Of a DNA stretch of 64,000 nucleotides, positions 1,343 through 51,530 are shown piece by piece. The stretch covers positions 487,089-551,088 of the forward strand of contig DATKZF010000003.1 in assembly GCA_035528115.1 (NCBI GenBank). The letters are read 5' to 3'. Source of the DNA: Candidatus Bipolaricaulota bacterium (GTDB lineage Bacteria > Patescibacteriota > Patescibacteriia > UBA11705 > DATKZF01). Below the pieces are notes generated by a model that worked only from the letters and a program-made list of their open reading frames with translations, ran no database searches and was not told where the DNA came from. The first letter of the stretch is position 1; every line of letters begins with the position of its first letter. Both the position numbers and the translations under genes were made by a program.

Positions 1343-1375
1343 TTTAATCTTCATTTAATAATTACTTCTATATTT

Positions 1376-4300: not shown

Positions 4301-5263
4301 ACCATGAGAACTTTCCATACCGGCGGCGTGGCCGGACAGGATATCACTCAAGGTTTGCCTCGAGTTGAAGAAATTTTCGAAGCGCGTCCGCCAAAGAAAA
4401 AAGCTTTGCTCAGCGAAGTGGACGGCGCGGTGACAATCATTGAAAAACCCAGAATCATTCAGGGTCCCAAAGGCGAAATCATCGCTCAGACCGCGTTCGG
4501 CGAAAGAGTGGTGAAAATTTCTTATCAAGATAAAGAAGTTGATACTTATAATTTCAAAGATCCGGCAGCCGTCGAACTGAAAGTCAAAGATGGCGACAAG
4601 GTCAGAGTGGGCGAAGTGCTTTTCTTGTCCGGCAAGAAAAAAGTCAAAGTGGTGCGAGACGGCAAGGTGGAACTCAAAGACAATAAAATCCTGATTTCGA
4701 ATGAGATGGCCAAAGAAAAAGAATACATAATTCCGGCCGGCACCACCCTTTGGATCAAAGACGGGCAAGCGGTCAAAAAAGGAGATCAATTGACCGAAGG
4801 CAGCATCAATTTGGATGAATTGTACGCGCTCAAAGGCAAGCAAGCGGTGCAAGAATACATTTTGAACGAAATTCAATATATTTATTCTTCGCAAGGTCAA
4901 AGATTGAATGACAAACACGTTGAAGTCATTTCCAGGCAAATGTTCTCCAGGGGTTACGTCAAAGATCCGGGAGACACTTATTTGCTGGAAGGCGAGATCG
5001 TGGAAAAAGCGGAATTGGAAGAGGCGAATCAGCAGGTTAGAAAAGGCGGCAAACTGGCTGTCAGCGAGGAAATATTCTTGGGCATTTCCAAGGTTTCGTT
5101 GACCACCAAGAGCTTCTTATCCGCCGCGTCTTTCCAGGAAACGGCCAGAGTGCTGATCAACGCCGCGGTCACGGGCAAGGTTGACCGATTGGAAGGCTTG
5201 AAAGAAAACGTCATCATCGGCAGGTTGATTCCGGCCGGAACAGGTTACGTGAAAAAACCTTAG
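1376..5263 (+). CDS. rpoC: DNA-directed RNA polymerase subunit beta'
   Basis: Contains the [14 protein letters not shown] catalytic motif, [20 protein letters not shown], and a zinc-binding CxxC...CxxC N-terminus. It sits 34 nt downstream of rpoB. Confidence 0.95.
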
Positions 5264-5269
5264 TGATTT

Positions 5270-5296
5270 CCGGCCGCTAATTCGCGGCCGGTTAAA
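5270..5296 (+). terminator. Hairpin CCGGCCGC-taattc-GCGGCCGG plus T-rich tail after rpoC
   Basis: An 8-bp perfect GC-rich inverted repeat lies directly after the rpoC stop codon. Confidence 0.6.
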
Positions 5297-5332
5297 TTAA
5301 TTCGAGCGGATAATTATTTTTAATTCGAACGT

Positions 5333-7180
5333 ATGAAAAATAACATCGCCAAAAATATTATCATTTTCATCGTGGTGTTTTTCATTATCGCCGCCATCTT
5401 CAGTTTGTACAATATTTCCTCGCAAGAGGTGGAAAATATCGGGGTGTCTCAGCTCATTTCCGAAATAGACAGCGGTCAAGTGAAAACAATAGGCGTGGAA
5501 GGCGATAATATCAATATCGCTTTGCAAGACGGTCATTTGCAGAAGTTGATGAAAGAGCCGACCGAATCTTTCTCGGATATCGTCAATAACTACGCGATTG
5601 ACCCGGCAAAATTATCGGGCATTGACATCCAAGTGGTTGAAGCGGAAGGCTGGGCTTTCTGGGCTTCGGCAATTTTGCCATATCTGCTGCCGTTTTTATT
5701 GATCGTGGCTTTTATTTGGTTCATGATGAGGCAGCTTCAGGGAGCGAACACCAAAGCCATGTCTTTCGGCCAAAGCCAGGCCAGAGAATTCAGCGCTCAA
5801 GGCAAAAACAAAATCACTTTCAAAGACGTGGCCGGAGTTATCGAAGCCAAAATCGAACTGGAGGAAGTGGTGGAATTTTTAAAGCATCCCAAAAAATTTC
5901 TTGATCTGGGAGCGAAGATTCCAAAAGGAGTTTTATTGATGGGCCCTCCGGGCACGGGCAAGACTTTGTTGGCCAGAGCAGTGGCCGGTGAAGCCAATGT
6001 GCCTTTCCTGAGCATTTCCGGATCGGAATTCGTGGAAATGTTCGTGGGCGTGGGAGCGTCGCGCGTTCGAGATTTATTTAAAAAAGCGAAAAAGAGCGCG
6101 CCGTGCATTATTTTCGTGGATGAAATCGACGCGGTGGGACGTCAGCGAGGCGCCGGACTGGGCGGTTCGCACGACGAGAGAGAGCAGACCTTAAATCAAA
6201 TTTTGGTCGAGCTGGACGGCTTTGACGCCAATACCAATGTTATCGTGATGGCCGCCACCAATCGCCCGGATGTTTTGGATCCGGCTTTGCTTCGCCCGGG
6301 CAGATTTGACCGACGGGTCATTCTTGATTTGCCGGACATTAAAGACAGACAGGCTATTTTGAACGTTCATTCCACCGGCAAGCCGTTTGATAAAGATATC
6401 AATTTAAGAAAAATAGCGGAGAGAACTCCGGGCTTTTCAGGCGCTGACTTGGCCAACTTATTAAACGAAGCCGCGATTTTAACGGCGCGACGGGACAAAT
6501 CCCAAATCGGCATGGATGAAGTCTTGGAAAGCATTGAAAAAGTGCTTTTGGGACCGGAAAGAAAAAGTCGGGTGCTCTCTGATGAAGAGAAAAATGTCAC
6601 GGCTTATCATGAGGCCGGACACGCTGTCGTGGCGCATCTTTTGCCCGGCACTGACCCGGTGCAGAAGGTATCCATTATTTCCAGAGGTTCGGCGGCCGGT
6701 TATACTTTGAAATTGCCGACAGCGGATAAAAATCTTCATAAAAGATCGGAATTTATTTCGGACTTGGCCATTTTTTTGGCCGGGCACACGGCTGAGAAAA
6801 TCATTTTCGGCGAGGTGACTACCGGAGCTTCGAATGATTTGCAAAAGGCCACCGAATTGGCGCACGACTTGATCACGCGATTCGGCATGAGCGATCATTT
6901 GGTGCCCAGAATTTACGGAGGAAAAGAAGAATTGGTTTTCTTGGGCAGAGATATCAGGGAGCAAAGAAATTACAGCGAAAAAGTGGCTGAATTGATTGAT
7001 CATGAAATTGACGGTCTGATTTCTGCCGCCATCAAAAGCGCGGAGCGGATTATAAACGACCATAGAGATAAATTGGACAAACTGGTGGCGCATCTTATGG
7101 AAAAGGAAACGATCGAAAGAGAAGAATTCGAAAAATTGATGGGGCCAAAAGAAGCCGTTGAAAACAAACAAGACAAATAA
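5333..7180 (+). CDS. ftsH: ATP-dependent zinc metalloprotease FtsH
   Basis: Two N-terminal TM helices, Walker A GPPGTGKT, a second AAA region and the HEAGHA zinc-binding motif. Confidence 0.95.
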
Positions 7181-7219: not shown

Positions 7220-8017
7220 ATGAAAAGAATCAAAGCCTTAATAATGATGCTGGCGCTATGCGTTGGCCTGGGCGCCTGCTCGGTTCAGGTGACTAACGAA
7301 GACGTTTCGACGGATTTTGACGCCAAGATAATCAAGACGGTCGAGTTCGAAGATTGGCGGGAAATCGAGCCCGGTTTGGCGATCAAACAATATTTGTTTG
7401 ATGACAAAATCACCATGACCGCGCTGAAATATTTCGGCGACAATTTCGACTGGGCGATCGCGCAAGATGTTGAGTCGCCCAAAACCGTGGCTGATTGGCA
7501 AAAAGCGCTAAAGGCCAAGGTCGCGATCAACGGGGGCTATTTCGACGAAAACAACGGTTCTACCGGCTATTTGTTGATTGACGGCCAAGAATACGGGAGA
7601 CCGAGCCGTGACGGGCAAAACGGCTATACGGGCATGCTGACCATAAAGGACGGTCGGCCGAGTTTGCGTTATTTGCCTGAAAATAATTACGCCGAAAACG
7701 AAAAATCGGATTTCGCCTTGCAGACTTTTCCCACGCTGATCAATAACGGCTCGAGCTTGATTGCCGTCGATAGTGGTAAAACCGCCAGACGACAGGTCTT
7801 GGCGCAAAACAAGAACGGAGAATTTTTCATCATCGCGGTCGAAGGTTTTGTCAGTCTGTATGAATTGGCCGATTGGCTGGCGAACTCGGAATTGGATTTG
7901 TCCATCGCTATCAATCTTGATGGCGGGCCTTCGGTCGGTTTGAGCGTTTATGTTGATGATTTCAATTATAATCTGGAATCGGCTTTCGTGCCCAACATTA
8001 TTTTCGCGACAAATTGA
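7220..8017 (+). CDS. Lipoprotein of the phosphodiester glycosidase (DUF2233, NAGPA-like) family
   Basis: Signal peptide with lipobox LGAC; the INGGYF and NLDGGPSVG motifs are typical of the DUF2233 phosphodiester glycosidase family. Confidence 0.6.
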   Translation: MKRIKALIMMLALCVGLGACSVQVTNEDVSTDFDAKIIKTVEFEDWREIEPGLAIKQYLFDDKITMTALKYFGDNFDWAIAQDVESPKTVADWQKALKAKVAINGGYFDENNGSTGYLLIDGQEYGRPSRDGQNGYTGMLTIKDGRPSLRYLPENNYAENEKSDFALQTFPTLINNGSSLIAVDSGKTARRQVLAQNKNGEFFIIAVEGFVSLYELADWLANSELDLSIAINLDGGPSVGLSVYVDDFNYNLESAFVPNIIFATN

Positions 8018-18375: not shown

Positions 18376-18874
18376 GGTTACAAATTACAAATGAAGACGA
18401 ATAACACAAATGGTTACAAATATGCCTAATGATAAGGTCATATATCCGGAATTGAGTTATCAAATAGTCGGAATTTTGTTCGACGTGCACAATGAGATTG
18501 GAGGCAAAGTGAGCGAGAAAGTTATTTCGCGGGCAATCGCGTCGGATTTGGATAACTGTCATCTCAAGTATGAAAAAGAAATACAGGTCCCCGTTTTCTA
18601 CAAAGGAAAGCAGATTGGATATTATTTTCTTGATTTCTTAATAGAGGGGAAAATTGTGCTGGAAATAAAAAAGGGCTTTCGATTCGCAAATAAAGATTTT
18701 GATCAAATACATGATTATTTGCAGTCAACCGGTTTGAAATTGGGCATCTTGGCGATATTTTCGGACACAAAAGTAAAATTCAGAAGAATACTAAACGAGT
18801 ATTAATTTTTATTAAACAATGAATACAAATTTGTATTCATTTGTAACATTTGTACGGATTTGTAATTTGTAACC
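18376..18874. mobile_element. Mini-cassette bounded by perfect 16-bp inverted repeats GGTTACAAATTACAAA (18376-18391 and 18859-18874) carrying one GxxExxY-family gene
   Basis: Left inverted repeat GGTTACAAATTACAAA; right TTTGTAATTTGTAACC is its exact reverse complement. An 18-bp palindrome GAATACAAATTTGTATTC sits at the 3' side of the cargo. Confidence 0.6.
18410..18805 (+). CDS. GxxExxY-family small protein (TIGR04256-like, putative PD-(D/E)XK fold)
   Basis: Family-typical core VPVFYKGKQIG...DFLIEGKIVLEIK...QIHDYLQSTGLKLGILAIF and an N-terminal G..SE.V helix. Confidence 0.6.
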   Translation: MVTNMPNDKVIYPELSYQIVGILFDVHNEIGGKVSEKVISRAIASDLDNCHLKYEKEIQVPVFYKGKQIGYYFLDFLIEGKIVLEIKKGFRFANKDFDQIHDYLQSTGLKLGILAIFSDTKVKFRRILNEY

Positions 18875-27750: not shown

Positions 27751-30273
27751 ATGGCAAAGTCGGCCAAAATAAAAAAAACAACCGGAGTCAAAAAAGCTAA
27801 AATAAAAAAACCGGTTGAAAAAGCTTCGGCCAAAAAAAATTCGGCGAAAAAAACGGTTAAGAAAAAAATCGCGGCCAAAACAAAACCGGTCAAATCCAAA
27901 AAAAGGGTTGTGACAAAAAAAAGGACTGTCTCGCCGATTAAAGCAAGCAAGCGGACAGAGCTGGCCAAAAAAGATTCGTCGAAAGAATTGGCCAAATTGA
28001 TCGCCGGCGAAGCGATGTCTGACATCGGCGCTGATTTTATTTTAAATAAAGCTTCTTTGGAGAAAAAAGACAGGCCGAATGTTTTCGTTTACAATAAACC
28101 TCAACCGAAAGTATCAGCGCATTTGCTTGATTTGAAAAACAGAATAGAAATTATCGAGGAAGAGACGGATTCTTTCACGATTTCTCGCGATACTTGCGAC
28201 GATTTCGCGCCGGTCAAATTATTAAAAGAAGAATTAAGCGAGCAATTCACCAAACCCAAGCTTTTCATTTTGCCGCTCGGCTGGGTAAAGGCTTTGGCCG
28301 GATTTATTGTTTTTTCATTGATCGTGGCCGGTCCCATTCAAGCTTTCGGCAATTATTATAAATTGAATAAAACTAAAGAAAGCGTGATCGGCTTGGCCAC
28401 GGGCGGTTTGAATGATCTGAAAACGGCTCAGGACAGCGCGGCCGGGAAAAATTTGGCGAAAGCGGGACAATATTTCAGTAGCGCCGGCGGCAATTTCAGT
28501 TCTGCAAAAGAGCAATTGGACGATATCAATGTTTTGCTCCAACCGATTTTGAAAATGATTCCCGTCGAAGGCAAGACTCTCGGAGACGCCGAGAATTTAT
28601 TGATCGTGGGAGAAAATTTATCGGTTTTGGGCCGATCGATCTCGGAAATATTCGATTTTTTTTACAATGACTCGTCGTCAATCACGGTAAAAATCGCCCG
28701 CATTAAGGAAGATAGCGCGAATCTTTTGCCGATCGCCGAGGAGACCGCGGAAAAAATAAAAAAAATAAATCCGAACGCGGTGCCGGAAGAAAACAAAGAA
28801 CAATTCGAACAGGCCAAAGAATTGATTGAAAAATTCGTCGCCGATTTGAAAACGATAGATTCATTATCCGATTTTTTGCTGGAAGTTCTCGGCGATTCGC
28901 AGAAAAAAAGATATTTGGTGGTTTTCCAAAACGATCGCGAGCTCAGACCGACCGGAGGATTTATAGGCAGTTACGCGATGGTGGACATATATCAAGGCGA
29001 AATTAAGAATATCGACATGCCCGGCGGCGGTTCGTATGATTTGCAAGGCGGCTTGCTGGAAAAAATCATCCCGCCAAAGCCCCTTTTATTGATCAATAAT
29101 CGTTGGGAATTTCAGGATTCGAATTGGTTTTTCGATTTTCCTTCTTCCGCGCGAAAAATGGCCTGGTTTTACGAAGCGGCCGGCGGACAGACCGTGGACG
29201 GAGTCATCGCGATCAACGCCGGATTGATCGAGGAATTATTGGCGTATTTGCCGCCGATCGATTTATCGGAATATGGCAAATCAATCAATGCCGACAATTT
29301 TATTGACGAGATTCAAAAATCAGTGGAACTCGAATACGATCGGTCGATAAACAGGCCAAAGCAGATTTTGTCCGACATGGCGCCGAAATTTCTTGAAGCC
29401 ATTTTTGAGGCCAAAGAAAATAATTTGATGAACATCGCTCAAACCTTGAACCGGAGTTTCGCGAAAAAGGACATCATGATGTATTTGGACGATCCCGAGA
29501 TGGAAACGGCGGTCATGGATTACAATTGGGCGGGCGAGGTAAAGGAAACGTCCATGGATTATCTGGCCGTGGTGGCCGCCAATATCGGCGGTCAGAAAAC
29601 CGACGGGGCGATCAAACAAGACATGGAATTGGTTTCGTCAATCGACAATCGCGGATTCATTATCAATCATTTGACCGTTAAAAGACGCCATAACGGCTCG
29701 CCGGACAATGTTTTTGAGAACGCGACCAACAGAGTGTATTTGAAAATTTACGTGCCTCAGGGCAGTCAAATCATTAATTCCTCAGGTTTTTCCAAAATTG
29801 ATGCCGGAGAATTTTTTCCATTGGCCGCGGGCGCGAAGCAAGACGAGTTTTTGTCCGATGAAGAAAGATTGATCGGCGTGGACAAATTATCCGGCTTGCA
29901 AATTTACGAAGAAGAAGGCAAAACCGTGTTCGCTGATTGGGTGGAAACTAAAGTCGGCGAGGAGTCGCAAATTGAAATTTCGTACATGCTGCCTTGGCAA
30001 TTAACCATGCCGGAAAAGTCCGAGGGCCTCGGCGCGATTTTCAATTCGCTTTTCAAAAAAGATCAAGAAGCGAATTATTATTCTTTGCTGATTCAAAAAC
30101 AATCGGGCGCGAAAAGCCGGCTCAGCGCTTCGGTGATATTGCCGGGCAAACAACAAATAACTTGGACATACCCTCAGGATTTTATTTTGGACGGTAAATC
30201 AAAAGGAACGTTAAACGCGGATCTGGACACCGATCAAATGATCGGTTTGGTATTCGAACCTCAAAAAAACTAA
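27751..30273 (+). CDS. Membrane-anchored DUF4012-family protein with an N-terminal lysine-rich histone-H1-like tail
   Basis: KKxxAKK repeats, one TM helix, then YLVVFQNDRELRPTGGFIGSYAMVDIYQGEIKNIDMPGGGSYD, which matches the DUF4012 signature. Confidence 0.7.
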   Translation: MAKSAKIKKTTGVKKAKIKKPVEKASAKKNSAKKTVKKKIAAKTKPVKSKKRVVTKKRTVSPIKASKRTELAKKDSSKELAKLIAGEAMSDIGADFILNKASLEKKDRPNVFVYNKPQPKVSAHLLDLKNRIEIIEEETDSFTISRDTCDDFAPVKLLKEELSEQFTKPKLFILPLGWVKALAGFIVFSLIVAGPIQAFGNYYKLNKTKESVIGLATGGLNDLKTAQDSAAGKNLAKAGQYFSSAGGNFSSAKEQLDDINVLLQPILKMIPVEGKTLGDAENLLIVGENLSVLGRSISEIFDFFYNDSSSITVKIARIKEDSANLLPIAEETAEKIKKINPNAVPEENKEQFEQAKELIEKFVADLKTIDSLSDFLLEVLGDSQKKRYLVVFQNDRELRPTGGFIGSYAMVDIYQGEIKNIDMPGGGSYDLQGGLLEKIIPPKPLLLINNRWEFQDSNWFFDFPSSARKMAWFYEAAGGQTVDGVIAINAGLIEELLAYLPPIDLSEYGKSINADNFIDEIQKSVELEYDRSINRPKQILSDMAPKFLEAIFEAKENNLMNIAQTLNRSFAKKDIMMYLDDPEMETAVMDYNWAGEVKETSMDYLAVVAANIGGQKTDGAIKQDMELVSSIDNRGFIINHLTVKRRHNGSPDNVFENATNRVYLKIYVPQGSQIINSSGFSKIDAGEFFPLAAGAKQDEFLSDEERLIGVDKLSGLQIYEEEGKTVFADWVETKVGEESQIEISYMLPWQLTMPEKSEGLGAIFNSLFKKDQEANYYSLLIQKQSGAKSRLSASVILPGKQQITWTYPQDFILDGKSKGTLNADLDTDQMIGLVFEPQKN

Positions 30274-30276
30274 ATT

Positions 30277-32289
30277 ATGATCGATAAAAAATCGTACAAT
30301 CAAGAAGAAAAAAAAGACAAAGGCAAAGAAGCCGTTGAGTCGGCCGATAAATCGGGAAGATTCAGCAGAAAAGAAAAAAAACAGTCTAAAAAAAGGCATG
30401 GGTTCAGTTTTTTTTCCAAACCTTCGAAAGCCATTGAATCGATAGCCTCGATTTACAAGCAAACGGACGAATTGTTTAAAAATAATGCGCCGATTGACGG
30501 TGAGGTTAAGGAAGAAGAGCAAATCCTGGCGCAGATCATGGAAAAAAGAAAAATCAGAAGGAAAAGAATGATAATTTTTTCGGCATTGTGCGGATTGGCT
30601 ATTATCGCCGGAGCCAGCGTGTTCGGATTTTTCGTTTTCAACAAGCGCCAGCAATTTTCCGAAGATAAAATAAATATTGAAATTCTCGGTCCGTCCGAGG
30701 CGATTATCGGCCAGGAAATTTCATATCTGATTAATTATGAAAATAAAGGAAATATTGATATCGATGACGTCAATGTTTTTATCAAATTGCCCCAGGGTTT
30801 TGATTTGATCGAAAAAATACCTGAGACCGATGGCACCAATTGGCATTTTGACAAATTGAAAGTGGGGGAATCCGGGCAAATAAAATTAACGGGTAAGCTT
30901 ATTGATCGAGCTGATTCCGAACAAAAAATGGCCGTGACTTTGAGCTATCAGCCGGAGAATTTCAGCTCCGAATTTTCCACGGGTGAAAATTTTTACACCC
31001 AGCTTCTGCCCGCGGAAATAGACACTGAGGTTTCCAGTCCGGAAACGGCCGCGCCCGGGCAAAAAATCAATTTGGTTATTTCTTATCAAAACAATTCGGA
31101 GAACGATTACGATAAATTCATTTTGAAACTATCGGCGCCGGCTGATTTTCAAATGCTGTCCAGTCAGCCCCAGGCGACGAATAACGAATGGCTGATAGAA
31201 AACATCGGCGCCGAATCGGACAAGCAAGAAATATCGGTCGAGGGCAAATTCGGCGAAGACTTGAATTTGGCCGAAGTCGAAATTGAGCAAAAATTTTCTT
31301 TGCAGGTTTTGTATCCGGGCAAGCTCGATAATAAGTTTTTGCAAAAAGAAGAGGGATTTTCCATCAGGCTTTCGGATGAAGAAATTTTCACCTATTTGAT
31401 CATCAACGGCAAAACGGAAAACAGCAACACTTGTTTCGGCAATGATTTAACCGGCAGTATTATTTTCAAAAACACGGGCGATAAGTCATTTGAAAATTTG
31501 ACCGCGAAATTGATCATCGAGCAATCACCCGTGGACGTGCTGGATTGGCAAAATTCCAATTTCGCCGGCGGCGTTAAGGCGAATATCGAAAACGGCAAAG
31601 AAATAAAATGGAGCCTTTCCGGCTTGCAGGCCAACAGCGAAAAAGTCATTGATTTTAAAATCCCGGTGGCCAAGCTGAGCGCTTTGAGCGATTTTTCAAA
31701 TGACAGTCTTTCCGCGCAAAAGCTTAAATTCCATTCGACCCTGTCCTTTCCGGATGAAGCTCGAACAATCGACAGCTCAGCGCTCGAAATAGGTTTGAAC
31801 AGCGATTTGAAATTGGGCATCAAGGCTTTGTATTATGACGCCGAGGGCAATGCCTTGGGCTCAGGGCCTCTGCCGCCGCAAGCCAATAAGAAGACGGAAT
31901 ATGTGATTTATTGGGATATTTCAAACAATTTGCATGAAATAACGGACATAAAAGTCAAAACAAAATTGGCCGAGAAAGTCAGCTGGGTGGGCGAGCAAAA
32001 AATTGGCGTCGGACAAATGAATTTTAACGCGGACACAGGTGAAGTGGTTTGGGAAATAAACCGGTTGCCCAAAAATATCAATGAGTCCCACGCCAATTTC
32101 AGAATCGGCTTGCGACCGCTTTCGGAAGACATCAGCAAGCTGATGAAATTGACCGAGACGACCACCATTGAAGCCAAGGACGCGGTGACCGGGGAAACGA
32201 TCGTCATGTCGCTTAATCCGATCACCAGCAATTTGGAATTCGATGACAAGGGCAAGGAAAAGGGAGTGGTGATACAAGAAATAGAATAA
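30277..32289 (+). CDS. Membrane-anchored surface protein with DUF11-type conserved repeat domains
   Basis: Basic N-terminus, TM helix, and repeated segments resembling DUF11/TIGR01451 (GQEISYLINYENKGNIDIDDVNV..LPQGF; GQKINLVISYQNNSEND). Confidence 0.5.
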   Translation: MIDKKSYNQEEKKDKGKEAVESADKSGRFSRKEKKQSKKRHGFSFFSKPSKAIESIASIYKQTDELFKNNAPIDGEVKEEEQILAQIMEKRKIRRKRMIIFSALCGLAIIAGASVFGFFVFNKRQQFSEDKINIEILGPSEAIIGQEISYLINYENKGNIDIDDVNVFIKLPQGFDLIEKIPETDGTNWHFDKLKVGESGQIKLTGKLIDRADSEQKMAVTLSYQPENFSSEFSTGENFYTQLLPAEIDTEVSSPETAAPGQKINLVISYQNNSENDYDKFILKLSAPADFQMLSSQPQATNNEWLIENIGAESDKQEISVEGKFGEDLNLAEVEIEQKFSLQVLYPGKLDNKFLQKEEGFSIRLSDEEIFTYLIINGKTENSNTCFGNDLTGSIIFKNTGDKSFENLTAKLIIEQSPVDVLDWQNSNFAGGVKANIENGKEIKWSLSGLQANSEKVIDFKIPVAKLSALSDFSNDSLSAQKLKFHSTLSFPDEARTIDSSALEIGLNSDLKLGIKALYYDAEGNALGSGPLPPQANKKTEYVIYWDISNNLHEITDIKVKTKLAEKVSWVGEQKIGVGQMNFNADTGEVVWEINRLPKNINESHANFRIGLRPLSEDISKLMKLTETTTIEAKDAVTGETIVMSLNPITSNLEFDDKGKEKGVVIQEIE

Positions 32290-36412: not shown

Positions 36413-37321
36413 AGCATGGGTTTTATTGGAAGATAAATGACTACTATCATTATGCCAGTTTTATCGGTGTCTGGCAATGTCATTTGGCTTCCAATGATCT
36501 AAATAAGCCTGTAAGCCGAATTCTGTGGCCTCCGCCAAGAATTCGAACGGCAGATTTTAGAACCTGTCGGCCGAAGCCTTGGCGAAGGTCGATGACCATC
36601 TATCTAGGTCCGACATTGCTGCCGGACTCAAGCGAGCTACCAAATTTGCTCTTGCACCTGATAGGGTTTACCACGCTTGGACGTTGCCGTCCAAGGAGAG
36701 AAGTATGATTTAAATGGTCACGTGAACAATTTAACTTTTTTTCTTCTCACTTTTCACCTTTGGCCGCGAAGCGGCCACCCTGAGTGAGGAGCAGTGCGAC
36801 GAATCGAAGGGTGTAGATGTATCCTTCGACTCGCTATGCTCGCTCAGGATAGTCGCTTCGCGACTAGTATAGTCTCTGTGGCACTGGCCGTCGGCCGAGT
36901 TTCTTTCGACCCTATCTCAGAAATAATTTTCTATTCAATTGGCGAATTTAGGCTGCAAATTGTTCAAAACTCGTCACCATAATAATCATATTATGCTTCT
37001 TCGTCTTTCACAATTTTCGCTCTAAATTCGCTCAATCTCATTACGAAACTTATGTCTGAGATAGGGTCTTGTTATCTCGGCATCGCCCGGACGTTATCCG
37101 GTATCATTTTTTATGGTGTTCGGACTTTCCTCCCTCCTTCGCTCCTTGCTGCGCTCGAGCTTCGAAGGGCAAGCCCTCTTAGTTTGCGAGGGGGGTTGCC
37201 GTTCTTGGCTTCAAACAAAGCAAGGAGCGAAGAAGAGCGGTCATCCGGCTTATTCAGATCAATGAAATTATAGCAAAAAAATGATGAAATGTCAATGGTA
37301 ATTTAAAAACCGCCAGCATGG

Positions 37322-44755: not shown

Positions 44756-45439
44756 ATGAATACCGAACAAAAATTGCGTGACAGACAGTGGTTTAAGTTG
44801 GCCATGATTGTATTGGGCGTTTTTTTAGTCATCATGCTTGTCGAATTGAAATTGCATAATCCTTTCGAAAAAATCAAATTGATAAATCAATCGTCGAATG
44901 AGGAAATTCTCGACATGACGAGCGTAGTTACTTCAAGCGATCCTTTCCTGGGCAATGAACAAGCCAAAATTCAAATAGTCGAATTCGGAGATTTCGCTTG
45001 TCCGTATTGCCGGCAGGCCGCGCCGATCATGCGATCATTGATGGCCGAGTATCAGGATAAGGTTTTTTTTCAATTCAGGGATTATCCGGTGGTGACGACC
45101 GAGTCGATGTGGCTGGCCATGGCCGCGGATTGCGCTGACGAGCAGAATAAATTTTGGGCTTTCTCGGACAAGCTTTTTCAAAATCAAGGAGAGGTCAGTG
45201 AAGAAACCATTTATAATTTGGCGAAAAGCGTAGGCTTAGCCACGGACAGATTTAAAAATTGTTTGACAACACAGAAATATAAAAGCGAGGTGGTCGAAGA
45301 TTTCAATGACGGAGAAGCTTTGAAAATTGAAGGCACGCCCACTTTTTTCATTAACGGCAGAAAAGTCAAAGGCGTCCCGGACGCCGAAATTTGGAGAAGT
45401 CTTTTGGATGAGCTGATCTCCTTATATGAAGAAAATTAA
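44756..45439 (+). CDS. DsbA-family thiol:disulfide oxidoreductase, membrane-anchored
   Basis: N-terminal TM helix and a thioredoxin fold with CPYC active site. Confidence 0.75.
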   Translation: MNTEQKLRDRQWFKLAMIVLGVFLVIMLVELKLHNPFEKIKLINQSSNEEILDMTSVVTSSDPFLGNEQAKIQIVEFGDFACPYCRQAAPIMRSLMAEYQDKVFFQFRDYPVVTTESMWLAMAADCADEQNKFWAFSDKLFQNQGEVSEETIYNLAKSVGLATDRFKNCLTTQKYKSEVVEDFNDGEALKIEGTPTFFINGRKVKGVPDAEIWRSLLDELISLYEEN

Positions 45440-45986
45440 TATGAGAGAAATAAGAATACACGGTCGAGGCGGACAAGGCACGGTGACCGCGGCGGAACTT
45501 TTGGCCATGGCGATTTTTCATGACGGCAAATATTCCCAAGCATTTCCATTTTTTGGCGTGGAGCGCCGAGGCGCGCCCGTTGAAGCTTACGTTAGAATAG
45601 ATGATAAGCCGATCAGATTGCGCAGTCAGGTTTATGCCCCCTGTTTTTTAATAATTATGGATATGAGTTTGGCCGAATTGCCGCAAGTGTTTCATGGAGT
45701 GAAAAAAGACGCTATGGTTTTGGTCAACAGCGAAAAAAAATTGAAATTAAAAAATTTCAAAGTTTTTAATGTGCCGGCCACGTCCATTGCCTTGGAAGCC
45801 ATGGGCAATCCGCTTTTGATAAACACTTCTTTAATGGCCGCTTTCGCCGCCATCACCGGTTTGGTCAAATTCGATTCTTTGGTCGAAGCGGTCAAAGACA
45901 GGCTCGCGCATAAAGGCGAAGAGGTGATTAAAAAAAATATCATTGCCATGAAGGTGGCGAAGAAATATATTGAGGAGAGCTTGTAG
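45426..45986 (+). CDS. porG: Pyruvate/2-oxoacid:ferredoxin oxidoreductase gamma subunit
   Basis: IRIHGRGGQGTVTAAELLAMA...FGVERRGAPV. Confidence 0.8.
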   Translation: MKKINMREIRIHGRGGQGTVTAAELLAMAIFHDGKYSQAFPFFGVERRGAPVEAYVRIDDKPIRLRSQVYAPCFLIIMDMSLAELPQVFHGVKKDAMVLVNSEKKLKLKNFKVFNVPATSIALEAMGNPLLINTSLMAAFAAITGLVKFDSLVEAVKDRLAHKGEEVIKKNIIAMKVAKKYIEESL

Positions 45987-46040
45987 CTGGTAGGGTGTAG
46001 CTGGTTAGGTGGCTACCTAATAACCTAATAAGCTACAAGC
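45979..46040. repeat. Imperfect palindromic element GCTTGTAGC...TTAGGTGGCTACCTAA...GCTACAAGC filling the porG-porD intergenic region (GCTTGTAGC/TAGGTGGC family)
   Basis: It starts inside the last codons of porG. Related copies are at 42519-42567 and, split around a cargo gene, at 47741-47760 and 48136-48157. Confidence 0.65.
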
Positions 46041-46047
46041 TAATATT

Positions 46048-46326
46048 ATGAAGAACAAATTATCCACAAAACCCGGCACAACCAAATTGAACAATACGGG
46101 CGATTGGCGGACTTATAAGCCGGTGGTTGATCATAAGCGTTGTATCGCCTGCGGCGTTTGTTCCCGCGTTTGTCCGGAAGGGTGCATTTTTTCAGTGGGA
46201 GAAAAAATGCTTCAAAAAGGCGGTAAAGTTTTTTTCGAACACGATTTGGACTATTGCAAGGGCTGCGGTATTTGCGCGGAAGAGTGTCCGGTCAAGTGCA
46301 TTGAGATGGTTCGGGATAAATCATGA
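46048..46326 (+). CDS. porD: 2-oxoacid:ferredoxin oxidoreductase delta subunit (2x[4Fe-4S] ferredoxin)
   Basis: CIACGVCSRVCP and CKGCGICAEECP cluster motifs. Confidence 0.8.
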   Translation: MKNKLSTKPGTTKLNNTGDWRTYKPVVDHKRCIACGVCSRVCPEGCIFSVGEKMLQKGGKVFFEHDLDYCKGCGICAEECPVKCIEMVRDKS

Positions 46327-46547
46327 ATCATGGATCATGAAACGAAAGAATATGAGACAGAAAGACAGAGAAACAAGGCCGACGCTGTTGTCATCTCGAC
46401 CTCTCGACCTTGCTCGGGGCAGGCCGAAGCGGAGAGATCTTTTCCTAATTCTTCGGAATAGATTTCTCCAACCCCAATTTTTCCGCCAAAGGCGGATCCG
46501 CCTCGGGCGGATAATTTCCGGTTTCCGGTTTCCGGTTTCTCATTACC
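46322..46547. repeat. Dispersed intergenic repeat, copy B (with insertions), upstream of porA
   Basis: Same core as 26380-26604; it carries an extra (TTTCCGG)x3 tract. Confidence 0.65.
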
Positions 46548-46569
46548 ATACATCACATTTGTAACTATT

Positions 46570-46588
46570 CCTGCCTGCGGCAGGCAGG
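46570..46588. repeat. Palindrome CCTGCCTGC-g-GCAGGCAGG (second copy, CCTGCCTGCCGGCAGGCAGG, at 34559-34578)
   Basis: Read directly; the two copies share an identical 9-bp arm. Confidence 0.6.
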
Positions 46589-46640
46589 CGTAAAAAAATA
46601 AGGCAAAGGCAAGCTAATTAGTTTTAAGAATTCGTAACGT

Positions 46641-47741
46641 ATGAAAAAATGCATCGAAGGCTCCGAGGCCATAGCCGAAACAATCAAACTCTGCCGGCCG
46701 GAAGTGGTGGCTGTTTTTCCGATTACGCCGCAGACTCATATAATAGAGCATTTGGCTCAATATAAAGCGGACGGAGACGCTGATTATGAATATATCAGAG
46801 CGGAGAGCGAGTTTTCCGCGGCTTCCATTATTTTGGGCGCGGCCGCCATGGGCTCCCGCGTTTACACGGCTTCCAGTTCGCAAGGACTGCTTTTGATGAC
46901 TGAGGTGATTTACAATATCGCGGGCATGCGTTTACCCGTGGTCATGACCGCGGCCAACAGAGCCATTTCGGCGCCGCTGAACATTTGGAATGATCAACAA
47001 GATGTCATGCCGTTTCGGGACGCGGGTTGGCTGATGCTTTTCGCGGAAGACAATCAGGAAGCGGTTGATTTTCATTTGATGGCTTATAAAATAGCGGAAA
47101 GATTTTCTTTGCCGGCCATGGTTTGCGTGGACGGCTTCGTATTAACGCATACCTTTGAAACCGTTGATTTGCCTTCAAGCGCTGAGGTTAAAAAATTTTT
47201 GCCGCGATTTTCTCCGAAAAAAAATTCGGCTTTGGACGTGATTCGGCCGGTAAGTTTGGGGTGTTTTGCCACGCCGGACGATTATCAGGAAATCAGACTG
47301 GAATTGCACGAAGATTTATTGAAAACAAAAGAAGCTTTTTTATCGGAAGCCGTAAAATTCAAACAGATTTTCGGCCGACAATTGAATGTCTGTCAGTATT
47401 ACGGCCCGGCAAACGCGAAGACCGTGATTGTTTCCATGGGTTCGGTTTTGGGCACCATAAAAGAAGCGGTTGATGAGCTGAATAAAAAAAGCGGCCAAGT
47501 CGGCGTTTTGAAAATTACCATGTTTCGGCCTTTCCCGGAAAAAGAAATTTTTGATATTTTAAAAAACAGAAAAAAAGTCATTGTTTTGGACAAGTCGATT
47601 TCTCTCGGTCGCGGCGGAATTTTATTCAATGAAATCAAACAATGTTTGTCAGGATCAAAGGTTGAAGTGAAGGGAGTCGTGGAGGGATTGGGAGGCAGAG
47701 ATGTGACCATGGGATTTGTTTCTGAGCTTGTAGCTTTTTAG
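46641..47741 (+). CDS. porA: 2-oxoacid:ferredoxin oxidoreductase alpha subunit
   Basis: N-terminal GSEAIAE...CRPEVVAVFPITPQT and the domain order of POR alpha. Confidence 0.85.
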   Translation: MKKCIEGSEAIAETIKLCRPEVVAVFPITPQTHIIEHLAQYKADGDADYEYIRAESEFSAASIILGAAAMGSRVYTASSSQGLLLMTEVIYNIAGMRLPVVMTAANRAISAPLNIWNDQQDVMPFRDAGWLMLFAEDNQEAVDFHLMAYKIAERFSLPAMVCVDGFVLTHTFETVDLPSSAEVKKFLPRFSPKKNSALDVIRPVSLGCFATPDDYQEIRLELHEDLLKTKEAFLSEAVKFKQIFGRQLNVCQYYGPANAKTVIVSMGSVLGTIKEAVDELNKKSGQVGVLKITMFRPFPEKEIFDILKNRKKVIVLDKSISLGRGGILFNEIKQCLSGSKVEVKGVVEGLGGRDVTMGFVSELVAF

Positions 47742-48157
47742 CTTGTAGGTTGTAGGTGGCAAAATATGGAAAAACAAGTAATAAACAGTTATAAGGATTT
47801 GATTGTTTGGCAGAAAGCCATGGACTTGGTGGTTGCCGTTTATAAGCTTACGGATAAGTTCCCAAGAGAAGAAGCGTACGGGCTTACTTCTCAGATGCGA
47901 CGCAGCTCCATTTCCATTCCTTCAAATATTGCGGAAGGAAGAAGGCGCGGAACAAGAAGAGAGTACAGGCACTTCTTAATTGTCGCGTATTCATCGGGAG
48001 CTGAGCTTGAAACTCAACTTGAAATCGCGAAAAGATTAAATTTTTCGGAAGATATCGTTTATAATGTCGCTGCTGATTTATTAGAGGAGATTATGAAAAT
48101 ATTAAATTCAATGACGTCGTCGCTTTATGTCTAAAGCCACCTAATCAGCTAACAAGC
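47741..48157. mobile_element. Cassette bounded by imperfect inverted repeats GCTTGTAGGTTGTAGGTGGC (left) and GCCACCTAATCAGCTAACAAGC (right) carrying a four-helix-bundle gene, inserted between porA and porB
   Basis: The outer 6 bp (GCTTGT) and inner 8 bp (TAGGTGGC) of the two arms are perfect reverse complements. An empty abutting-palindrome version is at 45979-46040. Confidence 0.55.
47766..48134 (+). CDS. Four-helix-bundle protein (TIGR02436, the 23S rRNA intervening sequence protein family)
   Basis: YKDLIVWQKAMDLVVAVYKLTDKFPREEAYGLTSQMRRSSISIPSNIAEG...GAELETQL matches the family consensus closely. Confidence 0.7.
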   Translation: MEKQVINSYKDLIVWQKAMDLVVAVYKLTDKFPREEAYGLTSQMRRSSISIPSNIAEGRRRGTRREYRHFLIVAYSSGAELETQLEIAKRLNFSEDIVYNVAADLLEEIMKILNSMTSSLYV

Positions 48158-48162
48158 TCATT

Positions 48163-50613
48163 ATGAAAATAAAAAAAACAACTCTCGCCATATTATTACT
48201 GGTCATCATGTCCGCGATGTTTGGATTTTCGGAGTTGGCCAAAGCCGCCGACTTGCGCGAAGCCATTCCGAATTTGAAAATTTCCATTCCCACTTTGCAG
48301 GAAGGGTTCCAACAGCCGGTGGTGATCAGCAAATGTCCCAAGGACAAACCCAATTGCGCGCCAAACGAGAAGCAGGCGTTCGCTTCGATTCCGTGGATCG
48401 CGCAGTATGTCAGCGCCATTTACAAATACGCGCTCGGTCTGGCCGCGATAATGGCCACGATTTCCGTGATGATCGGCGGCGTCTTGTACCTGACATCGGC
48501 AGGCAATCCTCAGCGCATCGGCACGGCTAAAAACATGATTATCGGCGCCATCTCGGGCATGGCCATTATTATTTTTTCTTATGTCTTTTTAAATTTGATC
48601 AATCCTGAACTGGTGAAATTAAGCCCGATCGAAATACAAACCGTGCTCGAAGAGCAGCTGGCCACGGGTCAAAGTTGCAGCAGTTTGGGTGGACAATTTT
48701 TAGTGCAGGTCGGCGCTGAAACGACCGATCCCAGTAACGCTTCCAATCACAGTAAATATTTGTGCGGCTCTTATTATCCGGTGTCCGTGGCCGCGGGCGC
48801 GGCCGGTTCGGCCGGAGGATCATGTCTCGGAGATTTTTGTCCGACCGGCAGTTGCGTTGAATTTGAAGGCAATACCCAGTGCGTTAACGCGCTTTTTTAC
48901 GGAACCATCAAGAGAACGGGTTTGGGCAGAATTATTGATAAAATAACCTTGATGGGAATAACTTCGGATAATGAAGTGGTGACGATTAAAGAATATCCGA
49001 TCAGCGGCACGGATTCATATATTATTCCGTTGACCGGAGATATCGACGCCAAGGTCAGAAACGCGCAAAAATTTTTCTTTTTGATTGAAATCAATGATAC
49101 CGACAATTGGGCGTATTGGGCGAAATTCCAAGCCACCAAAAATCAAAGCTTAATGGATTTGATCGGAGACAGAATTGCCGGAGCCTTTACCCCTACATGG
49201 GATGATGACGTTCCCGCTGTCAGAAGCTATAAAGATTCCAATAAGGCGATATTGGGCACGGCTCTGCCCATTCCCGTAGAACTTAGTCAGGCTCTGGGCA
49301 AAGCTTGCGAGACTTGCAGGGTTTTTGAAAGAGATCCGGAGACCTGGCAGCACTGGACGGCAAAGCCGTTTTGCAAGTTTTGGACGGCCGAAGAAGTGCT
49401 GGGCATCATTGGGGCAAACGGCGGACTGGGCATCAGAGTGAATTTCGACACGGATGATTTCCCTGAAGATTATACGAAGGTTGAAGCGGATGAATTGGCT
49501 ATTTACAACACCATGCCTTGCGGGCCGATCTATGGCTGCGATTTGAAATACGAAGAAAATAGCGCATATACGCAGTATGATCCGAAAAAAACCAAAGCCG
49601 AATGCGAAGCAGCCGCGAAATCGTCAGCCGGTCAGACTGTCGGCGGCGGTTCTTGTCAAATAAACGAGGTCTGGACCACCAAAAATGATCCTGACGGCAA
49701 TCCATTGGTTTGCCTGCCGGCGGGCGGTGTGGGTCAATATGAATGGTCCGGCGGCAAGGAAGGAGAGGCCATTGATAACTCTAACCTGGTTAATCCAAAA
49801 GATGTGCAACATTTTGGCGTGGAATTGCATAGTCGATATGCGAGTCTTGGCACTCAATTACCGACCGTGTCTTGCGTTGACGGCACCAAACCGACTTGGT
49901 TGGACGCGCAAGGAGCTTGGGACGCGGTGGGTTGCGAAAAAACTACGGGGGATGTCTATTATTGTTCGGGCAGATGTTTGGGACCGGATAAACAGGTTTC
50001 GTCTACGCCGGGTTCAAAATGCATTGGCGGTGTTTCTTGCTTCCCGTTCAACGGTCAAAAATTGATTTGCAATATGTCATCGCAGACTTGTCAATTCGGC
50101 GTCTGGGGAGATTATTGCGCCAGCGATATTCACTGCGACACTAGTTCCGGCTTTACTTGCAATATGGATCTGAAGGCTTGCGTTAAGAACGGCGCCGGGC
50201 AGCAGTGGCAAGCATGTTCGAGTGATGCTGATTGCGGCGGTTCATTGAAATGCTTATATCCTGCTTATATTGATTCGGATAATGGCGGTTGCGGCACATT
50301 TCCGGAAAGTTTTCCTGAAGCCGCGCGAGGTTCATGGGAAGACGTCAATTATGGTAGCAGCACTAATAATAGAAAAATTTGTTGGGATCCGGCGAAAAAT
50401 AATGACGTAAATGGCCTTTGCGATTGTGAAGCGAATCTTCAATGCGGGTCGGACAATGAGAAATGGTCGGATGCGGAGTTATGTAATACGGACGGTTTGA
50501 ATTATTGCTCTTCGGTTATCGAGGGCGCTAGGTGCGATACGGACAAAGACACGCCGCTGGCCGGAGGATATATTTGCGATGAAAGAAATTATCTAATTAA
50601 AAAAATTCAGTAA
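48163..50613 (+). CDS. Large cysteine-rich extracellular protein with signal peptide and an N-terminal two-helix hydrophobic hairpin resembling a VirB2/TrbC-type pilin module (inference)
   Basis: Signal peptide MKIKKTTLAILLLVIMSAMFG. The hairpin LGLAAIMATISVMIGGVLYLTSAGNPQRIGTAKNMIIGAISGMAIIIFSYVFL is followed by about 650 aa with more than 40 Cys, including repeated C-x-S-D-x-x-C units. The gene sits between porA and porB. Confidence 0.55.
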   Translation: MKIKKTTLAILLLVIMSAMFGFSELAKAADLREAIPNLKISIPTLQEGFQQPVVISKCPKDKPNCAPNEKQAFASIPWIAQYVSAIYKYALGLAAIMATISVMIGGVLYLTSAGNPQRIGTAKNMIIGAISGMAIIIFSYVFLNLINPELVKLSPIEIQTVLEEQLATGQSCSSLGGQFLVQVGAETTDPSNASNHSKYLCGSYYPVSVAAGAAGSAGGSCLGDFCPTGSCVEFEGNTQCVNALFYGTIKRTGLGRIIDKITLMGITSDNEVVTIKEYPISGTDSYIIPLTGDIDAKVRNAQKFFFLIEINDTDNWAYWAKFQATKNQSLMDLIGDRIAGAFTPTWDDDVPAVRSYKDSNKAILGTALPIPVELSQALGKACETCRVFERDPETWQHWTAKPFCKFWTAEEVLGIIGANGGLGIRVNFDTDDFPEDYTKVEADELAIYNTMPCGPIYGCDLKYEENSAYTQYDPKKTKAECEAAAKSSAGQTVGGGSCQINEVWTTKNDPDGNPLVCLPAGGVGQYEWSGGKEGEAIDNSNLVNPKDVQHFGVELHSRYASLGTQLPTVSCVDGTKPTWLDAQGAWDAVGCEKTTGDVYYCSGRCLGPDKQVSSTPGSKCIGGVSCFPFNGQKLICNMSSQTCQFGVWGDYCASDIHCDTSSGFTCNMDLKACVKNGAGQQWQACSSDADCGGSLKCLYPAYIDSDNGGCGTFPESFPEAARGSWEDVNYGSSTNNRKICWDPAKNNDVNGLCDCEANLQCGSDNEKWSDAELCNTDGLNYCSSVIEGARCDTDKDTPLAGGYICDERNYLIKKIQ

Positions 50614-50615
50614 TT

Positions 50616-51530
50616 ATGACAGCCAATAATTCATACCATTCTCCATTTCAACACCTGATCAATCCCGGCCACACGGCTTGCGCGGGTTGCGGTTTGATGG
50701 TGGCCATGATTAATGTTCTCGACGCGCTCGGGCCGAACACCATTGTGGTCGGAGCCACGGGTTGCAGCGAAGTGACCACCAGCAAATATCCGCAAAGCGC
50801 ATTTAAGGTGCCCTGGATTCATTCGGTTTTCGAAAATCCGGCGGCCGTGGCCACGGGCATTGAGGCTGTTTTGAAAAAAAGAGGTCAAGATAAAGACATT
50901 AATGTGTTGGCTTGGGGAGGGGATGGCGCCATTTTTGATATTGGCATCGGTTTTATTTCCGCCGCATGGGAGAGGCGGGAAAATTTTTTGCTGGTGTGCC
51001 TCGACAATGAGGCATACATGAACACGGGCATTCAGTCCAGCGGCGCCACGCCGCTTGACGCTTATACCATGACCACGCCGTCCGGCGAAAAATCCTGCGG
51101 CAATGCGAATTTGAAAAAAGACATGATCAGGATCGCTTTGGCGCATGACGTAGCGTACGCGGCCACGGCCACCATCGGCGATTTGACCGATTTGACCAAT
51201 AAAGTTAAAAAAGCGGCGAAAATAAAAGGGCCGAAATACATTCAGGTTTTAACGACCTGCATTCCCGGCTGGAACGTGGAGCCGAAATTGTCGATCAATT
51301 TGGCCAGGCTGGCTCAGCAGACGGGCATTTATCCGGTTCTCGAATATGAATACGGTAAATTAACCAATGTGAAAAAAGTGGCCAAGGATCGGCCGAGAGT
51401 GGAAGAATATTTGAAGCCGCAGGGCAGGTTCAAGCATTTGTTTTCCAAAAGCGGCAAGTGCCAGAGCGGCATTGAAGCGATTCAAACGTTGGCGGATGAG
51501 AATGTGGAAAAGTACGGGTTGTTGAAATAA
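50616..51530 (+). CDS. porB: 2-oxoacid:ferredoxin oxidoreductase beta subunit (TPP-binding)
   Basis: CAGCGLMVA..., GCSEVTT and GDG TPP-binding patterns; starts 3 nt after the preceding gene. Confidence 0.85.
   Translation: MTANNSYHSPFQHLINPGHTACAGCGLMVAMINVLDALGPNTIVVGATGCSEVTTSKYPQSAFKVPWIHSVFENPAAVATGIEAVLKKRGQDKDINVLAWGGDGAIFDIGIGFISAAWERRENFLLVCLDNEAYMNTGIQSSGATPLDAYTMTTPSGEKSCGNANLKKDMIRIALAHDVAYAATATIGDLTDLTNKVKKAAKIKGPKYIQVLTTCIPGWNVEPKLSINLARLAQQTGIYPVLEYEYGKLTNVKKVAKDRPRVEEYLKPQGRFKHLFSKSGKCQSGIEAIQTLADENVEKYGLLK

Follow-up and report, generated by a model that had tools for sequence, protein, structure and literature searches.

In archaea and anaerobic bacteria, canonical por operons (porCDAB or porGDAB) encode the gamma, delta, alpha and beta subunits of 2-oxoacid:ferredoxin oxidoreductases. 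A large part of bacterial diversity consists of Patescibacteria, which live attached to other cells and in whose biology the surface and secretion proteins are both the most important part and the least understood one. VirB2-like pilins are widespread in this group, often away from virB4, and form variable arrays (Microb Genom 2025, PMC12102498); predicted pilin subunits are essential in Southlakia epibionticum (Cell 2023, PMC10633639). The intervening sequence (IVS) in the 23S rRNA of Coxiella burnetii comprises 428 nt with a 28-bp stem, heptamer repeats and an S23p open reading frame (ORF) and is excised by RNase III (PMC4990558). Here, we describe a por operon in which relatives of the latter two systems lie between enzyme genes. 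It is located in a 64,000-nt stretch of DNA (the window) corresponding to positions 487,089 to 551,088 of contig DATKZF010000003.1, from an assembly labelled Candidatus Bipolaricaulota bacterium. Like the canonical operons, it encodes all four subunits in the order gamma, delta, alpha and beta. In contrast to them, its alpha and beta genes (porA, 46641–47741; porB, 50616–51530; all genes of the operon are on the plus strand) are 2.9 kb apart with non-enzyme genes between them, and a dsbA-like gene is translationally coupled to porG. The porA-porB distance of 2,874 nt is occupied by a gene for a 122-aa four-helix-bundle protein (47766–48134) and by a gene for an 816-aa protein (48163–50613), which is called BIG throughout.

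A reading of the window made without database searches (the sequence-only reading) had described this interval as 2.9 kb of inserted DNA. The ORF listing agrees with its gene map, in which porG, porD and porA end at 47741, porB starts at 50616 and two genes lie between them. The 2.9 kb are, however, made up of two unrelated components of very different age. BIG is a long-standing member of a dsbA-porG-porD-porA-X-porB operon in a broad group of Patescibacteria and not a recent insertion, because relatives down to 52–58% PorB identity hold a homologue at the same position. In approximately 72 por operons from bacteria and archaea outside the Patescibacteria, which were fetched via PorB, the alpha and beta genes are adjacent with an estimated porA-porB gap of at most approximately 380 nt, whereas they are not adjacent in the window; the split is clearly far from random. 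All recognisable BIG homologues with porA or porB on their contig are placed between both genes or abut one of them (loci L003, L006–L010, L011, L091, L092, L094, L100–L104, L106–L108 and L112). PorB identity to the window at the BIG-bearing loci ranges from 81% down to 52%. An independent test was provided by a Falkowbacteria locus (L118) that was fetched through PorB alone, without reference to BIG. Its PorB is 58% identical to that of the window, and its gene order is dsbA, porG, porD, porA, a gene for a 783-aa protein with 70 cysteines, and porB. The gene for the 783-aa protein overlaps porA by 4 nt, and the N-terminus of its product scores 171 bits against a hidden Markov model (HMM) of the N-terminal BIG module. 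Locus L011 was likewise drawn from a PorB-only scan of GTDB genomes. Finally, when metagenomes were scanned for the module motif IPW[IL]AxY, 18 loci were returned, 9 of which encode large proteins embedded in por operons (L100–L104, L106–L108 and L112).

The junctions of the BIG homologues consist of a 4-nt overlap or a spacing of 1–30 nt on the porA side (L094, L118, L104, L107 and L011) and of a spacing of 2–25 nt or an 11-nt overlap on the porB side. The homologue search returned four close homologues in 5.8 billion proteins, at 31–34% identity, and 12 proteins were recovered when 1.84 billion representatives were searched exhaustively with a profile of the BIG ectodomain alone. BIG has a GC content of 0.484 and a GC content at third codon positions (GC3) of 0.52; it looks native, because its GC3 matches that of its neighbours (0.50–0.61). 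No repeats bounding BIG were found in the window, BIG contains no mobility genes, and the gene order around the operon (SBP, secG, dsbA ... uvrA, rplS, gmk) is conserved. These data bear directly on the view that the whole 2.9 kb is recently inserted foreign DNA, a mobile island carrying a surface-protein gene. The adjacency of alpha and beta genes everywhere outside Patescibacteria fits that view, and so does the four-helix-bundle gene, which is bounded by an inverted repeat, AT-richer than its neighbours and missing in relatives. BIG, in contrast, has native composition, lacks bounding repeats and mobility genes and keeps its position even in lineages with a PorB identity to the window of just 52–64%, which makes a foreign island extremely improbable. 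The idea of inserted DNA thus holds for the four-helix-bundle cassette and fails for BIG. The best explanation overall, to which we assign a probability of about 0.68, is an old operon-resident surface protein, BIG, and an IVS-like four-helix-bundle cassette that would have inserted into the porA-BIG spacer later.

The four-helix-bundle cassette is the only part of the 2.9 kb that behaves as an insertion. It forms an IVS-like stem-loop of approximately 420 nt (47740–48158, plus strand), the arms of which pair in the minimum free energy fold as well as in the centroid fold and enclose the whole 122-aa ORF. The left arm (AGCTTGTAGGTTGTAGGTGGC, 47740–47760) overlaps the porA stop codon and supplies part of it, while the right arm (GCCACCTAATCAGCTAACAAGCT, 48136–48158) ends 4 nt before the BIG ATG. 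The inverted repeat that had been noticed around the gene proved to be real, though imperfect: the arm duplex has a free energy of -36.2 kcal/mol (z = -4.4 relative to shuffled sequences), and a mini-construct folds with -28.6 kcal/mol (z = -4.6). The ORF is intact and matches PF05635 over the full profile length (7.8e-38, 129.4 bits, cutoff 33.8), TIGR02436 (1.8e-36, 124.6 bits, cutoff 24) and NF008911 (137.3 bits, cutoff 137). An AGGTGG Shine-Dalgarno-like motif is located inside the left arm, 5' of the ORF. With a GC content of 0.396 and a GC3 of 0.407, the gene differs from its neighbours (GC3 0.50–0.61). L003, L006, L091, L101 and L011 lack the cassette at the corresponding site. The spacer of L009 (697–829) keeps an apparent 3' end of the four-helix-bundle ORF together with the right arm, which suggests that the insertion may be older than this species. 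In L003, the porA-BIG spacer (7900–8000) contains an ORF-less 30-bp hairpin of TTACGGA-type repeats (-41 kcal/mol, z = -6).

Comparison with the 23S rRNA IVSs of Coxiella burnetii, Leptospira and Xanthomonas (PMC4990558) revealed a common design: elements of approximately 420 nt, closed by a long terminal stem, with a PF05635 ORF in the loop. In both kinds of element, short heptamer-like repeats occur in tandem and the 5' arm contains an AG-rich ribosome-binding site. Unlike the IVSs, which reside in helix 25 or 45 of 23S rRNA, the cassette is part of an mRNA operon, its arms abut the upstream stop and the downstream start codon, and ORF-less derivatives occur in neighbouring spacers. An Rfam scan of the window detected no rRNA and only RNase P, and the cassette lies between protein-coding genes. 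By analogy, the polycistronic mRNA would undergo RNase III-type processing at these stems, or the stems would affect its stability. The arm motif GGTTGTAGG was not found again elsewhere in the window. In L095 and L098, four-helix-bundle genes are likewise located between co-directional genes, and their flanking stems have the motifs GGTTGTAGG and TAGCTTTTTAG in common. L098, a Parcubacteria metagenome-assembled genome (MAG), contains a type IV secretion system (T4SS) operon with two interleaved copies (4599–5841) in the order 261-aa gene, four-helix-bundle gene, PrgI, four-helix-bundle gene, TraC-like and VirB4-like; short flanking stems with GTTGTAG-type heptamers accompany these two genes. 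Nothing relevant on mobile elements of the four-helix-bundle or GxxExxY cassette kind was found in a literature search. The hairpin cassettes show that elements so far described in 23S rRNA also populate mRNA operons here, a point of importance when genes are called and operon expression is modelled.

Homologues of the four-helix-bundle protein at 63–74% identity number in the thousands, and the named ones are all from Patescibacteria. The same holds for PorB: apart from the window's own Bipolaricaulota-labelled record, the nearest homologues (55–82% identity) that are named beyond 'bacterium' belong to Patescibacteria, Parcubacteria, Falkowbacteria and Buchananbacteria. Together, the groups named among the nearest homologues of the two proteins are Parcubacteria, Falkowbacteria, Buchananbacteria, Magasanikbacteria and Portnoybacteria. 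Because the named homologues of both proteins are Patescibacteria, the Candidatus Bipolaricaulota label of the source assembly, to which the NCBI proteins HUT22598–HUT22637 of the window belong, is probably wrong, and the organism was treated as belonging to the candidate phyla radiation (CPR). The genome of locus L011, with the same operon, carries the label Gammaproteobacteria.

The N-terminus of BIG had been likened to VirB2/TrbC-type pilin modules, and profile comparisons bear this out. Hydropathy peaks at residues 3–29, approximately 86–114 and approximately 119–151. The first peak resembles a signal peptide, which was assigned to residues 1–28 (...LAKA/ADL; 48163–48246, plus strand) and is kept in all orthologues. 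The other two correspond to a predicted T4SS_pilin module (residues 79–150; 48397–48612, plus strand) with two transmembrane (TM) helices separated by the short basic loop AGNPQRIGTAKN and with the conserved motifs IPWIAQY and INPxL. The N-terminal 167 residues alone match PF18895 with 27.1 bits (E = 4.6e-6, gathering cutoff 26.6) across residues 79–146, whereas the full-length protein scores 24.7 bits, just under the cutoff. PF18895 was matched by the N-termini of 9/9 orthologues, the best at 1.8e-8. Moreover, hhalign aligned the BIG-module profile over 137 columns with a 242-aa pilin of the Parcubacteria MAG mentioned above, the gene of which neighbours PrgI, TraC-like and VirB4-like genes (L098, 10231–10959; probability 98.7%, E = 1.8e-16). 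AlphaFold2 models contain helices at residues 77–111 and 116–146 (pLDDT approximately 70–79). A PDB sequence-profile search with the module alone gave no match. On these profile scores, the N-terminus of BIG classifies as a genuine VirB2-like T4SS_pilin module and not as an ordinary signal anchor. Relatives share the position of BIG, as described above.

BIG and the VirB2-like T4SS_pilin proteins and arrays of Patescibacteria have in common a signal peptide and two TM helices with a short basic loop, and both are Patescibacteria-restricted and fast-diverging, with cysteine-bearing extracellular parts. Orthologues of BIG score 150–206 bits against the module HMM, compared to 65–140 bits for array pilins, and BIG for this reason represents a distinct orthologous group among T4SS_pilin proteins. 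In contrast to these, it is an 816-aa single-copy protein with a 650-aa ectodomain of an unannotated family, has no virB4 or other T4SS genes nearby and is embedded in a por operon. It is the sole module-bearing ORF in the 64-kb window and lies neither beside virB4 nor in a tandem pilin array, and no T4SS families were found among the scanned ORFs of the window. The 840-aa and 670-aa ORFs at 27751–32289, candidates for further pilin-module proteins by analogy with L004, were rejected, as they match DUF4012 and DUF11.

BIG could be a component of a working type IV secretion pilus, that is, a decorated or tip pilin with an adhesin domain, whose machinery is encoded elsewhere in the genome and whose location in por is incidental. 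The homology of its module to VirB2-like pilins of real T4SS clusters is in line with this, and so are the distribution of such pilins in Patescibacteria, widespread and often away from virB4 (PMC12102498), and the essential predicted pilin subunits of S. epibionticum (PMC10633639). The window offers no T4SS gene among its scanned ORFs in return, and BIG does not have the architecture of a small pilin: some 666 residues follow the second helix, and a globular extension of 650 residues per subunit is hard to square with VirB2-type helical packing. Furthermore, L004 encodes the same module fused to peptidase C39-like and amidase domains. These fusions suggest a generic anchor, and a pilus role for BIG is a possible but unlikely reading. 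They argue that the pilin module may often be a membrane anchor for extracellular domains rather than a polymerising pilin. From the positive-inside rule and analogy with VirB2, the loop of BIG is predicted to lie in the cytoplasm, with the 666 residues that follow the INPEL motif outside.

The ectodomain (residues 151–816; 48613–50613, plus strand), delimited by alignments, contains 38 of the 40 cysteines of BIG, an even number. The description 'extremely cysteine-rich' overstates the content of the whole protein, in which cysteines account for 4.9%, and is apt for the last 216 residues, where they account for 10.2%. About 30 of the 38 ectodomain cysteines are invariant among five orthologues. 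The 'repeated CxSDxxC units' of the sequence-only reading amount to two occurrences, at residues 652 and 685. A membrane-proximal region is conserved (IEINDT...DDD...GIRVNFDxDDFPED in the window protein; IE(I/L)NDT, DDDYY and G(I/V)RV(D/N)(I/F)D..F.ED across ectodomains), and pairwise BLAST connects the ectodomains in a chain from the core clade via L092/L093/L094 and L108 to L011/L104/L107 and, weakly, to L118. The C-terminal halves of the orthologues are composed of CxCxxxxDCxxGxxC-like units. Their dense spacing is shared with the eukaryote-type Dickkopf_N and EB modules; this likeness is compositional and not evidence of membership, since orthologue scores against EB and Dickkopf_N were below threshold (E = 0.01–0.02; 15–16 bits versus cutoffs of 24–25) and the window protein gave no match to these or to other Cys-rich models, EGF-like ones included. 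Orthologues are named 'pilin', 'hypothetical protein' or 'Dickkopf N-terminal cysteine-rich domain-containing protein' in databases, and UniRef gives the Falkowbacteria orthologue the Dickkopf_N name. No Pfam, NCBIfam or PDB sequence-profile match was obtained for the BIG ectodomain, even with a whole-family profile. AlphaFold2 modelling of BIG with an alignment of four sequences resulted in an unusable pLDDT of 36, which rose to 59.8 with 11 sequences.

The rate at which BIG diverges is two to three times that of the Por subunits. Between the window and L003, identity is 79% for PorB, 80% for UvrA, 72% for PorA, 47% for DsbA and 33% for BIG; within BIG, the N-terminal module is 53% and the ectodomain approximately 30% identical. 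Neither CxxCH nor ferredoxin-type cysteine motifs were detected in BIG. A redox-cofactor role of its cysteines was rejected on account of these missing motifs and the predicted outside topology. BIG is most reasonably read, as already proposed in the sequence-only reading, as a disulfide-rich surface protein.

The sequence-only account of the operon had omitted the DsbA-like gene at its head, which is the most informative neighbour of an ectodomain with 38 cysteines. This gene (44756–45439, plus strand; PF13462 4e-34, PF01323 9e-20) encodes a membrane-anchored thiol:disulfide oxidoreductase, is the first gene of the operon, and its 3' end overlaps the start of porG by 14 nt. A dsbA-like gene heads each por-type locus for which upstream sequence was available and is located 5' of porG in L003, L011, L101, L103, L104, L107 and L118. 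At loci without por, a dsbA-like gene directly precedes genes for cysteine-rich pilin-module proteins of 330–550 aa, more exactly 343–546 aa, either in arrays of three to four genes (L105, 1055–6391; L114, 2176–6203; L115, 591–6316) or as a single 546-aa gene (L116, 2775–5119). Taken together, both types of loci suggest that the recurrent functional pair is DsbA and a cysteine-rich pilin-like protein, with the por genes nested within the pair in one large lineage.

The mechanism that we favour would be as follows. BIG would leave the cytoplasm via the Sec pathway and stay anchored in the cytoplasmic membrane through its pilin-like hairpin, the loop of which would face the cytoplasm. Its ectodomain would be displayed on the cell surface, with disulfide bonds presumably made by the membrane-anchored DsbA-like oxidase from the head of the operon. 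BIG would be transcribed on the same mRNA as the oxidoreductase genes and would be a fast-evolving surface or contact protein, not part of the enzyme, so that its place in the operon would reflect co-expression and frozen gene order. Co-transcription had been suggested before and is plausible, because the spacers on both sides of BIG comprise only 2–28 nt in the window, genes overlap in relatives and promoter and terminator signals are not above chance. Promoter and terminator scans returned counts at chance level and zero intergenic sites within the operon. The stop codon of BIG is separated from the porB start by 2 nt.

A closer tie to the enzyme would exist if BIG and DsbA were functionally integrated with the oxidoreductase, either as a membrane tether or as an extracytoplasmic redox partner that links ferredoxin metabolism to thiol oxidation. 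Such integration would explain why BIG stays between porA and porB, and the six-gene arrangement indeed persists across deep divergence with junctions of the translational-coupling type. Patescibacteria generally have no respiratory chain (PMC10633639), which leaves the route of DsbA re-oxidation a question. The predicted cytoplasmic part of BIG, in turn, is a loop of approximately 12 residues common to ordinary pilins, BIG contains no heme or Fe-S motif, and its ectodomain evolves too fast for a catalytic partner. Module homologues occur together with DsbA at loci without por (L105, L114–L116), a BIG homologue resides beside uvrA without porB in L093, and the conserved gene order extends to the whole neighbourhood anyway. 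We therefore regard integration with the enzyme as very unlikely. Broader in scope is the proposal of a conserved three-part module, in which a DsbA-like oxidase, pyruvate:ferredoxin oxidoreductase and a VirB2-like cysteine-rich surface protein couple a host-contact structure to fermentation, by regulation or physically. If so, BIG would be a functional member of the operon and not a passenger; we consider this unlikely.

Several points weigh against an old, operon-resident surface protein followed by a later cassette. Only two Patescibacteria por operons (L118 and L011) were sampled independently of BIG, a narrow basis for judging the breadth of the arrangement. The porA-BIG-porB arrangement is not invariant. 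L113 has a variant por operon (313–4792) composed of porD, porA, a 332-aa pilin-like gene, porB and a 394-aa pilin-like gene, with every junction overlapping or spaced by at most 6 nt. In L093 (1–5909), the BIG homologue is located directly 5' of uvrA with no porB between them, and por may have been lost or moved in this lineage. Upstream of this homologue lies a gene fragment for the C-terminal part of a further cysteine-rich protein; an assignment of the fragment to PorA or DsbA was rejected. That BIG has stayed inside por over so much divergence could point to a genuine functional tie with the enzyme. That BIG is co-transcribed, exported, disulfide-bonded and exposed on the surface is inferred throughout, and a processing function of the cassette stems follows from analogy only. 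A Foldseek search of the ectodomain with the best AlphaFold2 model (pLDDT 59.8) returned nothing at E < 0.05, and for an ectodomain with no recognisable fold or family 'surface or contact protein' denotes a functional class and not a mechanism.

The preferred reading, an old surface-protein gene inside the operon and a younger cassette in front of it, is moderately interesting for CPR biology. It delineates an orthologous group of VirB2-like proteins that has so far had no annotation, with a large and, as inferred, disulfide-rich ectodomain. The group has a diagnostic address in the genome, downstream of dsbA and between the two genes porA and porB. This address is a simple marker for finding members of a fast-evolving family, provides a testable pairing of a DsbA-like oxidase with its likely substrate and offers a concrete system in which co-regulation of surface structures and core fermentation can be examined. 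Searching the literature on Patescibacteria for por in combination with pilin brought up nothing relevant and no report of a por-embedded member.

The remaining genes of the operon are well supported as enzyme genes. Full-length Pfam and NCBIfam matches were obtained for 4/4 Por subunits, with NCBIfam E-values of 1e-27 to 1e-135. The gamma subunit is encoded by porG (alias porC; 45426–45986; PF01558 2e-41, TIGR02175 195 bits) and the delta subunit, a 2x[4Fe-4S] ferredoxin-like protein, by porD (46048–46326; TIGR02179 94 bits and Fer4 families). PorA matches PF01855 (2e-69), PF17147 (7e-30) and NF040682 PorA_Arch (451 bits), and the thiamine pyrophosphate-binding beta subunit PorB matches PF02775 (6.5e-18) and NF008819 PorB (331 bits). 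Pyruvate-type NCBIfam models are the best matches of the subunits, each under its equivalog cutoff (PorA_Arch 451 versus 550, PorB 331 versus 405). The next gene after porB is uvrA.

Hairpins are not confined to the porA-BIG spacer. An ORF-less hairpin (45978–46041, plus strand; -29.1 kcal/mol, z = -3.3) fills the porG-porD spacer and supplies the porG stop codon, and its arms can be aligned with those of the cassettes in the window and in L095. All four occurrences of the exact 9-mer AGCTTGTAG in the window fall in these por spacers. The porD-porA spacer is enlarged to 314 nt (46327–46640, plus strand) and structured (z = -4.5). As it comprises approximately 125 nt in relatives, alignment assigns approximately 190 nt of extra, repeat-rich sequence to the window. 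This spacer harbors three copies of TTTCCGG (46515–46535) and the 19-nt palindrome CCTGCCTGCGGCAGGCAGG (46570–46588), and the extra sequence may be another decayed hairpin element. An unlikely further possibility is that IVS-type hairpin cassettes with four-helix-bundle or PD-(D/E)XK ORFs routinely colonise intercistronic spacers of CPR operons as RNA-processing sites.

Two further observations were made outside the operon. A second hairpin cassette (18376–18874) carries a PD-(D/E)XK ORF (PF13366, 18410–18805) and is designed like the four-helix-bundle cassette; it has a 49-nt inverted repeat, the outer 17 nt of which are perfect, and its right arm ends just before the probable leuS ATG (18878). 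The RNase P RNA match on the minus strand (36496–37181) covers the full 367-position model spread over 686 nt, indicating large insertions in the gene.

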